Position numbers and translations under genes: made by a program. From NCBI RefSeq assembly GCF_988243305.1, contig NZ_OZ547136.1: 64,000 nt of DNA; one strand, given 5' to 3'. Below the pieces are notes generated by a model, which was not told where the DNA came from, made no database searches, and worked only from the letters and a program-made list of their open reading frames with translations. Positions within the stretch are counted from its first letter, which is position 1. Each line of letters opens with the position of its first letter. This document shows positions 3,232 through 37,156 of this stretch, in pieces.

Positions 3232-3891
3232 TTGTCTGCTGAATCTTTATACGGAATTCCTTTCAGTATGCGTACACGAATTGACTATCTGGCGGATAAA
3301 TACTGTTTTACAGAACGGAACGAATCCCCCCGTCTTCGCCGGCAGTGGCAGGATGTTCTGGAGGAGTGCCGGCAGACAGAGGCCGGGCCAGAAGAACGGT
3401 TGCGTATTGCACTGCTGAATGTGGATTACGTCACCAGTTTTGAACTGCCTTTTCGCTTGCTGCTTACCCGTACACCGCAATTGATTGCCGCGCTGCGTGA
3501 AGAATGGGGCATCAGCCAGAAAAATGTGGTGTTTAACGATAAACGGTTTGGCTGCGTGTACAGCCTGAAGGCCAGCCTTTCTGGTGTGCCGGATACATAC
3601 CGGTATCATCTGTCTCACCGTATTCGTCGCGTGGTTGGGAATGAAAACACATCATTGCCATATCAGCAGGTTGCCCGGGAAGTGAAAGCGCCCCGTGAAC
3701 GGCTGAAGTATGCACTGGAGGCGGGTTTGCTGGTGACTGCACTGGACGGCCTGTTCTGGTTTGGCAGTCAGCGTATTGCGGCTGATGTTCTGAGGCTGAG
3801 AAAGGCCGGAATGCCGGTGGTGACCACGACCGTGGAGGTGCACGATAACCTGACGGGAACAACCCGCAAAGTACCGGCATACCATCTCTGA
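3232..3891 (+). CDS. hypothetical island protein
   Basis: 219-aa ORF, GC-normal; no family recognised. Confidence 0.4.
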   Translation: MSAESLYGIPFSMRTRIDYLADKYCFTERNESPRLRRQWQDVLEECRQTEAGPEERLRIALLNVDYVTSFELPFRLLLTRTPQLIAALREEWGISQKNVVFNDKRFGCVYSLKASLSGVPDTYRYHLSHRIRRVVGNENTSLPYQQVAREVKAPRERLKYALEAGLLVTALDGLFWFGSQRIAADVLRLRKAGMPVVTTTVEVHDNLTGTTRKVPAYHL

Positions 3892-5051: not shown

Positions 5052-6185
5052 TTGACTGGAAAATTATGTTGCAGGAACGAGAGGACTGAGGAACAAAGCT
5101 TATTCCGGCGCTGTCCGTCCTTGCTGTCACTGACACTGATGTCTGCTTTATTATCGCCTTTATCTCTTCAGGCAGCGGATGTCCGGCGTAGCGGAGATGA
5201 AGCATTTATCATTCAGCAGCAGCGTCAGGAAGCCCTTGAGCAACAACTGACGCCTTCAGCCCCTGATGTTCGCCTTTCTGCACCTGGCTCTTTTGCCCAT
5301 AAGATTAATTTTCCTGTTGAAACGCCCTGTTTTCAGATTAAACAGACGGAACTGAAGGGGGCTGATGCGTTACCACACTGGCTGCCTTTACAAAAAATCG
5401 CCAACGGGGCGGTCGGGCATTGCCTGGGGGCGAAAGGAATTAATCTGCTGATGAGTACATTGCAGAACCGTCTGGTCGATCATGGTTATGTCACCACCCG
5501 TGTTCTGGCACCTTCGCAGGATTTAAAAAGCGGTATCCTCCGGCTGGTCATTATTCCCGGTGTTGTGCGACATGTGCGTCTGACACCGGACAGTGATGAC
5601 TATATTCAGTTGTATTCCTCATTCCCGGCACACGAAGGTTCTCTGCTGGATTTACGGGACATTGAGCAGGGGCTGGATTTAGGTAACAGCCGGATACAGG
5701 GACAACATACTGAGCTGAATGCAACCAGTGGAAATCTGTCTACACAGAATGCGCAACTGAGTGCCGGTACGCTTTCCGCCCGGACTGCCGGGCAGTTCAG
5801 CAGTAATGGCGGTACGATAAATGCCGACACACTGCAGATATCGGCACAAAGCCTGTCAAATCGTAAAGGCAGTCTGATTCAGACGGGAACAGGGGATTTT
5901 TCGCTGAGTCTGCCGGGAAGCGTGGATAACCGGGAAGGGCTGCTTGCGGCAAATGGCGCGGTGCGTCTGGATGCACTGAGCCTTGATAATCGCAAGGGGA
6001 AAGTGCAGGCGGAGCAGTCACCCTCCCTTCAGAAATCCCCGCCCACGTTTCTGAAACCGTTTGTGGCTGGTGTCTGTGCGGCATTGCTGGCGGTCAGCGT
6101 GGCTATTCCGGGATGGCAGTTTCTGACACAGCCATCACCGGAGGAGCAGCATTTTACCTGGGGGAATGGTTGTAAAAAGCAGTGA
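5052..6185 (+). pseudogene. Two-partner-secretion remnant: TpsB (CdiB/ShlB/FhaC-like) N-terminal POTRA-like segment fused in frame to a hemagglutinin-type repeat fragment (CdiA/TpsA-like); far shorter than an intact TpsB or TpsA
   Basis: N-terminal part resembles TpsB transporters ([27 protein letters not shown]); C-terminal part is Ser/Gly/Asn/Leu-rich repeat text typical of filamentous hemagglutinin/CdiA; 377 aa total. Confidence 0.5.
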
Positions 6186-6425
6186 AAACAGTAAATACAG
6201 AGTATCGTGATGAATTAGTGCTCAGGGGCTACCAGTATTCAATAACCAGCGTATCGGCATCGCATTCCTGTAATTCTGGTATTGACTGTTATGACTAAAT
6301 TCAATGTATATATGGCAGGCAGAAATATGTTAACAGTCCCGGAGTTGTGGAAAATCCTCCGGAGCTAATATCGGGAGTGCCTTAACAATTTTCCGTAAGT
6401 TAAATGATAATTTCTGAGTGAGAAT

Positions 6426-9107
6426 ATGGTCACGATTTGTGTTGACGGTGAAAATAAGACTCATAAAATTACCGACTGGACGCTGTGGGCTGGAAATGAC
6501 GACAGAGAGGTTATGCTGACCTGTCATTTTCGCAGCGGGAGAAAATATACTCGTCCGCTTTCTGTATGTCAGATAACGCCAACTGTAAATTTGCGAAATG
6601 TTTTCCTCGAAAGGAAAGGGAACGCTGTAACATCCCGGGCTGAACTGGTTATTATATATGGTGATAAATATGCTGCTGTTTATTACCGCGAGGGTGAACG
6701 ACCCTACATCATGAAAACGACCGGCCTTGACTTTCAACAGTGTTCAGCATTTACAGAGCATGCCGTGTTTAATTACTTGTGTAGGGTGGCTAATGAACGT
6801 ATTTTTTATGCCCGTGGTAATAACAGAAATATCGATGAGAATATCCTTAGGCAGATAAAGAAAATAGTTCCTCATCCGGATACCGCCTTGCATGCATACT
6901 GTTCAGGACAGAGTAAAAAACGTGATTCGCCATGGGGTTTGATTTTTCCGTTTGGTCTTAATGAAAGTCAGTTGCTGGCTGTCAAACGGGCATTTTCCTC
7001 ACAGATTTCAGTTATTGAAGGACCACCTGGAACAGGTAAAACACAGACTATACTCAATATTGTTGCTAATATATTAATTCAGAATAAAACAGTGGCAATT
7101 TTGTCCAATAATAACTCAGCTGTCAGTAATGTTTATGAAAAGATGGACAAACAGCAACTGGGATATGTGATGGCACGACTGGGGAGTACGGAGAACAGGC
7201 AACAGTTTTTTTCAACGTCGATTTCGCGTTCTGAGGAAGTCTTACCTGACTCACCGTCTGCAAATGCGATTGATGATGTACTTCAACAAGTGAAAAAACA
7301 CCTGAATGCCATTAACCAGGTCGCTTCGTTAAAAGCAGAAATTAATGAGCTGAATATTGAGTATAAATACCTGCAGCAATGGCAGAGTCAGAATCTTCGA
7401 CCGGAGGAGCTTTTTTCTCACAAATACCGATTTTCCTCACAAAAAACAACCGACCTGATGGCTTATATTCATTACCTTTCTGACAGGCGGATTGGATTCA
7501 GAAACAGAATTGATTTGTTGTTAAACTTCATGATACTGAAAGTCAAACCATTGATGATTCCGGAGAGAAGGCTGGCGCTATTTACTTCTCTTCAGCTTTC
7601 TTATTATGAAAAAAATATCCGGGAAAAACAAATTTCTCTGAATGAATATGAGGAAGTATTTAAAAAATCTGATTTTAAAATTTTACTGGGGCGCCTGACA
7701 TCATGGTCTATGCTTTATTTAAAGCAACATCTGCGAAGAAATGTTTCAACAAGAAGTTCATTCTCGGCAGAGACATACAGGGATGAATTTGACCGTTTTA
7801 TAAAGCGTTTTCCGATTATTGGTAGCAGTACGCATTCGATTATTAACTCTATCGGCAAGGGGGCCCTTCTTGATTATGTTATTATTGATGAAGCCTCGCA
7901 GCAGGATATTGTTCCGGGCATTCTGGGACTGGGATGTGCCCGTAATGTAATCGTTGTAGGGGATCGTAAGCAACTTCCACATGTTCCTGTATTACTCCCG
8001 AACAGCCCATCTCCACCGGCAGAATACTATAATTGTGAGAAATATAGTCTACTTGATTCGGTTTGTATGTTGTTCAGGAACATGGTGCCAGTAACCCTTC
8101 TTAAAGAGCATTATCGTTGTCATCCTAAAATCATTCAATTTTGTAATAAGCAGTTTTATGATAATGCTCTGATACCGTTAACGGTTGATTCCGGTGAAGC
8201 CTCATTATCTCTGGTCATCACGGCAAAAGGAAACCATACCCGTAATTTTTCAAATCTCAGGGAGCTTGAATCTCTGGAAGGTCATTACTGGGATGAAGAA
8301 AGTAGCAGGGGATACATTGCCCCATATAATGCACAGGTTAATCTGGCTGAAAAAGTGCTGCCTGCTGATTTTGTGAAATCGACGGTGCATAAATTTCAGG
8401 GACGGGAGTGCGATGAAATTGTGTTTTCCACTGTGCTGGATAAGAAGCGCAGCAGCCAGCACAGTCGGAACATCGCGTTTGTTGATAATCCTGAACTGGT
8501 GAATGTCGCTGTTTCAAGGGCCCGAAATAAATTTACGCTGGTGACTGGTAATGATGTATTTGAACGCCACGCTGGACATATTGCGGCGCTGATTCGTTAC
8601 ATCAAATACTACGCTGATGACGGAGAGATTTTCGAGAGCCCGGTCATATCAGCATTTGATTTGCTGTACAGTGAGTATGACAAATCACTGGAACGACTGA
8701 ATAGTAGATTGAATTCAAATGATTCACACTTTAAGTCAGAACAGATTGTGGCCTGCCTGTTGCGGGATATCCTGTCGCAGGATAGTTATCGGAGTATGAT
8801 GTTTCATTCACAAATAGCGCTGAATCAGTTGGTGTTGCTGGAGCGGGGGGATTTTACACACCGTGAACAGTTATTCATGCGTAACCGGGCCAGTTGTGAC
8901 TTTGTTGTTTACTATAAGGTCGGGAAGACTCCATTAGGGGTTATTGAAGTGGATGGAGGTTATCATCTGACCAGTGTTCAGGCTGAACGTGATGAACTTA
9001 AAAACAGTATACTGAAGAAATGCGGCCTGCCATTGCTAAGATTACGTACTATAGACAGTGATATAGAAGGGAAGTTGGGAGCGTTTCTGTCAGGCCTGAC
9101 AGGCTAA
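6426..9107 (+). CDS. Superfamily-1 (Upf1/DNA2-like, AAA_11/AAA_12 type) helicase with unknown ~170-aa N-terminal domain and a C-terminal restriction-endonuclease-like domain; candidate phage-defence helicase-nuclease
   Basis: Walker A GPPGTGKT (nt 7020..7043), Walker B VIIDEASQ, helicase motifs VVGDRKQLPHV, KFQGRECDEIVFS, VAVSRARNKFTLV; C-terminal CDFVVYY...IEVDGGYH...ERDELK resembles a PD-(D/E)xK-type fold. Confidence 0.8.
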   Translation: MVTICVDGENKTHKITDWTLWAGNDDREVMLTCHFRSGRKYTRPLSVCQITPTVNLRNVFLERKGNAVTSRAELVIIYGDKYAAVYYREGERPYIMKTTGLDFQQCSAFTEHAVFNYLCRVANERIFYARGNNRNIDENILRQIKKIVPHPDTALHAYCSGQSKKRDSPWGLIFPFGLNESQLLAVKRAFSSQISVIEGPPGTGKTQTILNIVANILIQNKTVAILSNNNSAVSNVYEKMDKQQLGYVMARLGSTENRQQFFSTSISRSEEVLPDSPSANAIDDVLQQVKKHLNAINQVASLKAEINELNIEYKYLQQWQSQNLRPEELFSHKYRFSSQKTTDLMAYIHYLSDRRIGFRNRIDLLLNFMILKVKPLMIPERRLALFTSLQLSYYEKNIREKQISLNEYEEVFKKSDFKILLGRLTSWSMLYLKQHLRRNVSTRSSFSAETYRDEFDRFIKRFPIIGSSTHSIINSIGKGALLDYVIIDEASQQDIVPGILGLGCARNVIVVGDRKQLPHVPVLLPNSPSPPAEYYNCEKYSLLDSVCMLFRNMVPVTLLKEHYRCHPKIIQFCNKQFYDNALIPLTVDSGEASLSLVITAKGNHTRNFSNLRELESLEGHYWDEESSRGYIAPYNAQVNLAEKVLPADFVKSTVHKFQGRECDEIVFSTVLDKKRSSQHSRNIAFVDNPELVNVAVSRARNKFTLVTGNDVFERHAGHIAALIRYIKYYADDGEIFESPVISAFDLLYSEYDKSLERLNSRLNSNDSHFKSEQIVACLLRDILSQDSYRSMMFHSQIALNQLVLLERGDFTHREQLFMRNRASCDFVVYYKVGKTPLGVIEVDGGYHLTSVQAERDELKNSILKKCGLPLLRLRTIDSDIEGKLGAFLSGLTG

Positions 9108-9607
9108 AATCTGAATAAAAAATATTGCAGCGGGAGGTCTCAAACCTGATTTGGTCATGTGCCACACACAATTGTACGAACCCCATGGACACAGGCTTCT
9201 TTGTTTTGGTTACATCAACGTACGTATTCCTGATACATATAAAAATAAGTGCTATTGCTCAAAGCTAACAGGGAATGTTTCTGTTGAATAATTCCTTAGT
9301 GAATAAACTTTATCAGGGGGTAATTCTATTACAGTGAATACTTCCTGCAAAATGATATTTGAATTGTTCACCATCTGCATCATATTTTCTTATTTACAAG
9401 TTGAAAGGATAGTATATGTTGAAAATGCATGGATTTTCCAGATGTGTTACCAGTAAGAAGCAGGTGGATAAAGGATGTGATAACAAATCCAACAACCAGG
9501 TTAATATCTGAAGATTTTTGTTGTTATTATTTATCCCCAAAGCGGTGAGTTATTAATGAAGTTTGCCTGAATGTATAAACAGAATTATTCGACATAAAGC
9601 CAGGAAA

Positions 9608-37068: not shown

Positions 37069-37156
37069 TGGCGGTGAGGGGGGGATTCGAACCCCCGATA
37101 CGTTGCCGTATACACACTTTCCAGGCGTGCTCCTTCAGCCACTCGGACACCTCACC
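37069..37156 (-). tRNA. serX: tRNA-Ser (anticodon GGA), 88 nt with long variable arm and CCA end
   Basis: Reverse complement reads GGTGAGGTGTCCGAGTGGCTGAAGGAGCACGCCTGGAAAGTGTGTATACGGCAACGTATCGGGGGTTCGAATCCCCCCCTCACCGCCA. Confidence 0.95.

Follow-up and report, generated by a model that had tools for sequence, protein, structure and literature searches.

The 64,000-nucleotide stretch of DNA analysed here (contig NZ_OZ547136.1 of NCBI RefSeq assembly GCF_988243305.1; hereafter the window) encodes, at positions 6426-9107, an 893-residue protein referred to below as the helicase-nuclease. A complete Upf1-like superfamily 1B (SF1B) motor and an intact Vsr/DUF559-type nuclease active site are joined in this one polypeptide, and no partner gene accompanies it. 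Most likely the helicase-nuclease is a one-gene defence that acts on phages or on other nucleic acids entering the cell, a reading that is given slightly better than even weight. The protein is identical to WP_000256234.1 of strain 190693, which carries the RefSeq label 'AAA domain-containing protein'.

Architecture and conservation of the helicase-nuclease

The open reading frame (ORF) is intact, starts with ATG and lies on the plus strand, as an earlier, sequence-only reading of the window had reported. Its parts were delimited as follows (aa, amino acids; nt, nucleotides).

6426..9107, plus strand: complete helicase-nuclease ORF, ATG start, 893 aa plus stop
6426..6920, plus strand: family-specific N-terminal module (aa 1-165), with SH3/Sm-like small beta-barrels at 3-51 and 53-105 and three helices within 113-160
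6951..7220, plus strand: first part of RecA1 (aa 176-265), Walker A at nt 7020-7043, K205 invariant in 76/76 sequences
7221..7811, plus strand: all-helical insertion in RecA1 (aa 266-462), with modelled helices at 279-323, 379-413 and 417-439
7812..8015, plus strand: second part of RecA1 (aa 463-530), Walker B at nt 7878-7901, motif III GDRKQLP; D488, E489 and Q516 invariant
8016..8570, plus strand: RecA2 (aa 531-715; Pfam AAA_12), motifs IV YRCH at 563, V HKFQGRE at 655-661 and VI VAVSRAR at 694-700
aa 718-729: linker helix in the AlphaFold model
8628..9104, plus strand: Vsr/DUF559/DUF2726-type PD-(D/E)xK nuclease domain (aa 735-893), catalytic core at nt 8898-9002

Pfam analysis of the ORF identified AAA_11 at residues 178-518 (1.4e-20) and AAA_12 at residues 625-707 (7.7e-14), with an additional AAA_12 stretch at 549-583. 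The motifs were located at residues 199-206 (Walker A GPPGTGKT, containing K205), 485-492 (Walker B VIIDEASQ), 512-518 (GDRKQLP), 563-566 (YRCH), 658-661 (QGRE) and 694-700 (VAVSRAR). With both RecA-like halves and motifs I, Ia, II, III, IV, V and VI present, the protein belongs to the Upf1/DNA2-like SF1B helicases; the complete Upf1/DNA2-like SF1 core and the assignment of K205 as the Walker A lysine, both proposed from the sequence alone, were confirmed. A full-length AlphaFold model was built on 46 diverse homologues, with a predicted local distance difference test score (pLDDT) of 88.2 and a predicted template modelling score (pTM) of 0.83. In this model the long helices of the RecA1 insertion measure 45, 35 and 23 residues, and the insertion (aa 266-462) is a putative stalk or 1C-like region. 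The solved structures closest to the whole model were IGHMBP2, SETX/Sen1, UPF1, DNA2, Aquarius, ZNFX1 and coronavirus nsp13, which make up the Upf1-like SF1B clade, and no bacterial defence protein was found among the top 50 solved-structure matches.

The nuclease was recognised by a Pfam match to DUF2726 at residues 818-879 (5.7e-12), accompanied by a weak match to MTES_1575. Its motifs are CDFVVYY (824-830), IEVDGGYH (840-847) and ERDELK (854-859). In the AlphaFold model the domain is an alpha/beta unit of ~160 residues (735-892) whose core follows the predicted order alpha-beta-beta-beta-alpha-beta. The catalytic residues are D825, E841, D843, H847, Q852, D856 and K859, together with E772 on a helix upstream: the strand at 823-830 bears D825, the strand at 836-843 bears E841 and D843, and later helices bear H847, Q852, D856 and K859. 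The upstream helix, which carries S771-E772, is invariant and forms part of the domain. When an 18-sequence alignment of residues 715-893 was compared with profiles, counting matches at E<=0.1, DUF2726 was matched by 18/18 members (best 1.6e-16), DUF559 by 16/18 and MTES_1575 by 14/18. The profile match and the D...E-x-D-x3-H...Q...D...K pattern place the domain among the DUF2726/DUF559/Vsr-type nucleases. The sequence-only reading had predicted a PD-(D/E)xK-type tail and had named the DUF2726 and DUF559 models; the fold type and both models were borne out, and the length of ~100 residues it had given was too short. A sequence-profile search of the PDB with the nuclease domain returned no solved relative, even at E<=10. 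VSR, DUF559 and DUF2726 were grouped together within the PD-(D/E)xK superfamily by Steczkiewicz et al., who described DUF2726 proteins as being of unknown function, multiply transferred and found among mobile elements in some taxa. Anantharaman et al. listed DUF2726 among DNases of the restriction-endonuclease fold, in fusion with N-terminal domains of the Abi type.

The N-terminal ~175 residues gave no Pfam match, in agreement with the earlier statement that the first ~170 residues hold no recognised motif. Modelled by itself, the N-terminal module reached a pLDDT of 85. Its profile was compared with 1.84 billion representative proteins and returned 68 matches, all of them N-termini of ~880-980-residue proteins or short fragments. 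A Foldseek search of AFDB50 with the module likewise returned helicase-DUF2726 proteins, followed by weak SH3 matches, and no other fold relative outside the helicase-DUF2726 family was found. Distant Foldseek matches came from Bacillus, Nocardia, Spirochaetes and Faecalibacterium, at 14-20% identity and query-normalised template modelling scores of 0.4-0.5. Because the profile and Foldseek searches return just this family, the N-terminal module is considered private to it, with its structure kept throughout. By analogy, the barrels and helices, which lie directly N-terminal of RecA1, may act as the 1B barrel and stalk of Upf1-family helicases.

Conservation was assessed in an alignment of the query and 75 sequences from the scanned loci described below (76 in total, from several phyla). 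Invariant in 76/76 were the ATPase residues K205, D488, E489, Q516, R564, Q658, G659 and R698 and the nuclease residues D745, Y748, E772, D825, E841, D843, H847, Q852, D856 and K859. Since the catalytic residues are invariant, strict selection acts on both enzymatic activities. In the distant half of the alignment, identity to the query was 43-57% for the RecA segments and 36% for the nuclease; the N-terminus (16.5%) and the helical insertion (18%) are the fastest-diverging regions.

Distribution and genomic setting

More than 4300 proteins matched the helicase-nuclease at E<=1e-5. The best 120 matches were nearly all ~890-910 residues long and carried an identical Pfam set, and the architecture is not due to chance, given this number of homologues of common length and architecture. 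Their database names were 'AAA domain-containing', 'DNA2/NAM7 family helicase', 'DUF2726 domain-containing' and 'helicase' and no others. A locus scan taking one genome per species provided 78 loci spanning Gamma-, Beta- and Alphaproteobacteria, Firmicutes, Actinobacteria, Bacteroidota, Chlorobi and others, all of which encode proteins of ~850-1020 residues. The occurrence of 55-57% identical copies in Oceanobacillus and Enterococcus indicates horizontal transfer. Among complete E. coli genomes the gene was present in 647/5426 (11.9%), almost always as a single chromosomal copy. In O157:H7 genomes the match covers 2681 of the 2682 bases, one base short, and is annotated as two coding sequences ('AAA domain-containing protein' and 'hypothetical protein'); judged by its sequence, this copy looks like a frameshifted pseudogene. 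A search of the PHROGs phage families gave nothing beyond helicase-core matches.

A conserved partner gene was sought by all-against-all clustering of 1093 flanking ORFs from the 78 loci and was rejected, since no flanking family occurred at more than 9/78 loci. The recurrent neighbour families were LysR, SDR, ABC, GuaA and PheST, which represent either generic families of large size or housekeeping genes in synteny. No neighbour was shared by ten Pfam-annotated contexts from other genera. IbrAB was also considered as a modification-arm partner, on the basis of its adjacency in E. coli and of an IbrA-like gene in Edwardsiella, and was rejected after tblastn found IbrA or IbrB at 0/78 loci. The stand-alone status of the gene is well supported by these three results. 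The Edwardsiella IbrA-like gene (PAPS_reduct and DUF3440; L011/L012) lies ~9 kb upstream of the homologue, and a literature search for ibrA/ibrB returned retina papers and nothing else.

The 3' end of guaA, a known genomic-island attachment site, recurs beside the gene: guaA was found within 10 kb at 10/78 loci, and in Pantoea, Pseudomonas dryadis, two Burkholderia species and Sneathiella the helicase-nuclease gene starts 235-1060 bp past the guaA 3' end on the same strand. These placements were observed in the upstream flanks of L029, L030, L033, L042 and L047 and at L024. In Billgrantia (L024) the gene is the sole cargo between guaA 3'-end fragments (9374-9781 and 12849-13207), resembling a minimal cargo at an attachment site, and in Paraburkholderia it lies inside a guaA-resolvase-IS21-HipBA stretch. 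Insertion sequence (IS) elements and toxin-antitoxin genes are close by at several loci. In Edwardsiella (L011/L012) and Pantoea dispersa (L013-L015) the homologue immediately precedes the cytochrome c maturation operon ccmA-H, possibly a chromosomal insertion spot common to both genera.

Known defence genes were sought with PADLOC around 15 loci that had been picked by flank length and GC content alone. From each locus the nearest and a distant (>=6.5 kb) neighbour on each side were taken where there was a usable ORF, giving 46 proteins. At 4/15 loci (4/46 proteins) a neighbour matched a known defence protein strongly and over essentially its full length; one partial PDC-S50 match was obtained in addition.

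L017 12795-16619: PD-Lambda-4_A, E=0 (PADLOC)
L034 12784-13989: SoFic, E=1.5e-123 (PADLOC)
L041 1056-2981: type IIG restriction enzyme (restriction-methylase), E=5.9e-172 (PADLOC)
L045 95-2032: PbeC, E=6e-98 (PADLOC)

Outside this sample, a PD-Lambda-1-like gene lies two genes away from the homologue in Pantoea dispersa (L013 7021-8265), a RES-Xre toxin-antitoxin pair occurs at the Nitrincola locus, and HNH, MazG-like and DUF2075-helicase genes lie alongside the homologue on a metagenomic contig. Directly upstream of the Nitrincola homologue, after the RES-Xre pair and an RNase_T-family gene, a 1443-aa protein is encoded (L005 5521-9852). It gave no Pfam or PADLOC match and may be a further uncharacterised defence-island gene.

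In the window, the gene stands alone between AT-rich spacers with a filamentous-haemagglutinin (FHA)/POTRA fragment on its 5' side and IbrA/IbrB on its 3' side, and the sequence-only reading was right on both counts. The spacers measure 240 bp on the 5' side and 500 bp on the 3' side (the latter at 37% GC). The GC content of the gene itself is ~0.39-0.44, compared with ~0.5 in neighbouring E. coli DNA. A consensus scan found one promoter-like site, and there was no clear intrinsic terminator 3' of the stop codon. Two further features were noted in the window.

6382..6411, plus strand: candidate sigma-70-like promoter (TTAACA-18-GATAAT, 10/12 matches), 15 bp 5' of the ATG, a consensus match that is not evidence of function
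37069-37156, minus strand: tRNA-Ser(GGA) gene, likely the attachment site of the island

Over its first 13.4 kb the window is 99.97% identical to strain 190693, and the helicase-nuclease gene is 100% identical. The island around the gene contains IS elements, the FHA/POTRA fragment, IbrA/IbrB, PerC, Ag43 and a CP4-type module with an antirestriction gene and CbtA/CbeA. PADLOC analysis of eight flanking E. coli proteins gave no match, with the one exception of IbrA, which matched BrxP and DndC weakly through the PAPS-reductase fold. The upstream 'POTRA domain' coding sequence (5139-6185) contains filamentous-haemagglutinin 20-residue repeats (TIGR01731, 3.2e-11) and resembles a piece of a two-partner-secretion locus, while the coding sequence at 3268-3891 encodes an 'ECs1377 family' protein (1.2e-97), a family named after the O157 Sakai locus tag ECs1377. 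The ibrB gene of the window (10825-11463) has a premature stop at codon 153, so that its ORF ends at 11283; in strain 190693 it is intact at 212 residues (L001 18400-19038). Because of this stop, IbrB is probably inactive in the window strain. A segment of ~12 kb (window 13390-25365) holding the aerobactin genes iucA, iucC, iucD and iutA is missing from strain 190693.

Comparison with known defence systems

The PADLOC matches of the helicase-nuclease cover its helicase core or part of it: MkoA at 1e-43, MkoC at 2.3e-40, PDC-S37 at 2.1e-36 and Hhe at 1.1e-16. In type II Mokosh (MkoC; Millman et al. 2022) a single gene encodes a Upf1-like RNA helicase with a phospholipase D (PLD) nuclease at its C-terminus, and defence depends on the ATP-binding site as well as on the nuclease site. 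The helicase-nuclease is similarly one stand-alone polypeptide in which the nuclease comes after a Upf1-like helicase (COG1112, AAA_11/AAA_12). The two differ in their N-termini and in the nuclease, which belongs to the PLD/HKD type in Mokosh and is a Vsr/DUF2726-type PD-(D/E)xK nuclease here. The MkoA match aligned residues 178-729 with profile positions 616-1100 of 1112, as expected of a COG1112/Upf1-like helicase, and the best stretch with MkoC covered profile positions 771-953 of 1136, the helicase part alone. Membership of Mokosh type I or II was rejected, as there is no PLD/HKD Pfam match and no adjacent PLD gene.

The K-12 gene yjhR (b4308; L094 9016-10032) was examined as a possible remnant of a helicase-nuclease gene. 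It was rejected, as the sole significant alignment covers 96 columns in the AAA_12 region (motifs V-VI) at 31% identity. By eye, the C-terminus of yjhR is PLD-like, with the HKD/PLD motif HSKIVIEDEELLCVGSFNW. Because the AAA_12 stretch alone is shared and the C-terminus is PLD-like, yjhR is not an orthologue; as far as its sequence can tell, this pseudogene may be what remains of a helicase-PLD gene resembling Mokosh type II.

Hhe is a single protein that joins an AAA_11/AAA_12 helicase to a Vsr-like (DUF559/MTES_1575-type) endonuclease. It is ~1800-1900 residues long and contains DUF4011, whereas the present protein has 893 residues and no DUF4011 match. Membership of Hhe (Gao et al. 2020; NCBIfam NF042953, 'DUF4011 domain-containing anti-phage protein Hhe') was rejected: NF042953 gave a score of 76 bits where 2000 is the cut-off, and in PADLOC the match to Hhe was limited to residues 180-260. 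Membership of ProA (110 against 1500 bits), PLuB (61 against 999) and PDC-S37 (best stretch residues 181-314 alone) was rejected likewise.

CnuH of the type III-B CoCoNuT systems (Bell, Makarova, Koonin and colleagues, eLife 2024, PMC11090510) joins a UPF1-like SF1 helicase, in which Walker A is followed by a large helical (coiled-coil) insertion, directly to a Vsr-like PD-(D/E)xK nuclease; it has an N-terminal winged helix-turn-helix and is encoded in an operon with McrB/McrC-like CnuB/CnuC and coiled-coil CnuA. The helicase, helical insertion and Vsr-like nuclease of the AlphaFold model resemble this layout, a comparison made with the published description and not between sequences. In contrast to CnuH, the helicase-nuclease has no conserved neighbour and its N-terminus is a twin beta-barrel. 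Membership of CoCoNuT type III-B was rejected for want of linkage to cnuB/cnuC/cnuA, as the 78 loci contain no conserved neighbour and the E. coli flanks are the FHA fragment and IbrAB.

Nhi (nuclease-helicase immunity; Bari et al.) is a stand-alone single-protein defence with a PD-(D/E)xK nuclease and an SF1B helicase. Its nuclease is N-terminal and HsdR-like and its helicase is of the DUF2075 (PF09848) class, whereas the nuclease is C-terminal here; Nhi membership was rejected, the PF09848 match being limited to the Walker A stretch (residues 193-260). The eukaryotic Upf1-family proteins IGHMBP2, UPF1, SETX/Sen1 and DNA2 provide the closest solved motor structures, and all SF1B motifs are present, at ~15% identity. 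However, none of them has a Vsr-type nuclease, and the nuclease of DNA2 is N-terminal and of another PD-(D/E)xK type.

The view that the protein belongs to no named family held, since the PADLOC and NCBIfam matches are confined to the helicase core and lie far below the cut-offs. Assignment to a housekeeping or plasmid helicase family, the outcome named beforehand as speaking against defence, did not occur in the profile searches. The literature search found no paper on this helicase-DUF2726 family, and no curated model names it. The helicase-nuclease resembles type II Mokosh, Hhe and CnuH in outline, is a member of none, and is best read, by analogy, as their PD-(D/E)xK counterpart.

Proposed role and alternative explanations

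A defence role is plausible because of the patchy accessory distribution of the gene, its transfer across phyla, its presence at an integration hot spot, an excess of known defence genes among its neighbours and its analogy to validated systems. The sequence-only reading had likewise proposed a defence factor; the three-part architecture and the stand-alone placement on which it relied were upheld, and the role in defence is one that we infer. In a more specific form, held at about even confidence, the family would be an unnamed single-protein immune system found across phyla, in which a Upf1-type motor and a Vsr-type nuclease are combined with a twin-barrel sensor. It would then be the PD-(D/E)xK counterpart of type II Mokosh, travelling as minimal cargo in hot spots such as the guaA 3' end.

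The motor would load where foreign DNA or RNA is single-stranded at a 5' region, for example on transcripts or on intermediates of replication or recombination. By analogy with related motors, ATP-driven 5'->3' movement would then carry the C-terminal nuclease to its substrate, which would be cut. The N-terminal module and the helical insertion would occupy the Upf1-family 1B barrel/stalk and 1C positions, and the fast-evolving twin-barrel N-terminus together with the insertion may determine which substrate is used or restrain the enzyme until it receives a cue from a phage. The result would be either degradation of the invading nucleic acid or abortive infection.

Several observations weigh against a role in defence. 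Plasmid copies are rare (18 records, mostly megaplasmids) and the family is nearly absent from phage records. No full-length PADLOC match was obtained, and the NCBIfam scores, namely those given above for ProA, Hhe and PLuB and 144 bits against a cut-off of 349 for the IGHMBP2 family, are all far below threshold. The enrichment of defence genes among neighbours (P ~0.002-0.01) refers to a 46-gene sample and to a background of 1-2% defence genes that was assumed, not measured. Copies in Methylobacillus, a Logan/GCA contig, Edwardsiella and Rheinheimera lie amid UvrC, ribosomal protein, ccm or MutS genes. Lastly, it is by analogy that we infer the substrate (DNA or RNA), the polarity and the trigger of the enzyme.

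The protein could instead be a chromosomal DNA-repair or recombination helicase-nuclease, DNA2- or AddAB-like, that processes stalled or damaged replication intermediates for the benefit of the cell and has no part in immunity. Its helicase core is closest to DNA2, IGHMBP2 and UPF1, the gene is almost always chromosomal, some copies adjoin UvrC, MutS or ribosomal protein genes, and Vsr is itself a repair nuclease. A repair function nevertheless seems quite unlikely in view of a gene that is carried by just 12% of E. coli genomes, is disrupted in the O157:H7 lineage at no apparent cost, has a low GC content and occurs at scattered positions with transfer across phyla. The hot-spot location and defence-gene neighbours also argue against it, and an N-terminus evolving this fast would be unusual for a repair enzyme. 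RNA-directed surveillance, which would still be a form of defence, was also considered. Here, as has been proposed for Mokosh and CoCoNuT systems, the motor would move along transcripts that are aberrant or of phage origin, and RNA or RNA/DNA hybrids would be cut by the nuclease. In PADLOC the Mokosh helicase MkoA is the best match, and RNA recognition has been hypothesised for Mokosh; CnuH, with the same helicase-Vsr fusion, has a predicted RNA target (PMC11090510), and the closest solved structures are RNA helicases. Those Vsr/DUF559/DUF2726 nucleases whose activity is known act on DNA, however, and the Upf1 clade includes DNA enzymes such as DNA2 as well as IGHMBP2, which acts on both. The N-terminal fold matches are too weak to argue for RNA binding. 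RNA surveillance is regarded as unlikely.

A selfish or addictive gene was the remaining explanation, in which the Vsr/DUF559-type nuclease, whose fold also occurs in homing endonucleases, and the helicase would drive their own insertion or retention at sites like the guaA 3' end. This would account for the Billgrantia locus, where the gene is the only cargo between the guaA fragments, for the repeated starts shortly after guaA and for guaA-side copies that have no adjacent integrase. A group I intron homing endonuclease is also included in the Vsr/DUF559/DUF2726 group (Steczkiewicz et al.). Such an element is nonetheless highly improbable: guaA is near in just 10 of the 78 loci and the rest are at unrelated sites, guaA fragments are the leftovers of eroded tandem integrase-borne islands, and a 900-residue helicase is no known homing machinery.

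The finding is regarded as solid and not startling, as helicase-nuclease fusions are already familiar; what is added is a large, unnamed family with a private N-terminal module that is present in many pathogenic E. coli. If the helicase-nuclease is not a defence protein, it would be an unrecognised accessory repair or RNA-processing enzyme. If it is, it would represent a compact, easily tested one-gene system belonging to a family of thousands and carried by roughly one E. coli genome in eight, O145, O111 and extraintestinal strains among them. Upf1-like helicases would then have been paired with different nucleases at least three times, with PLD in Mokosh, with a Vsr-type nuclease in Hhe and CnuH, and in the present family. 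Such repeated assembly would help to explain how Upf1-like motors distinguish foreign from host nucleic acid, and the family-specific N-terminal module is a candidate sensor.

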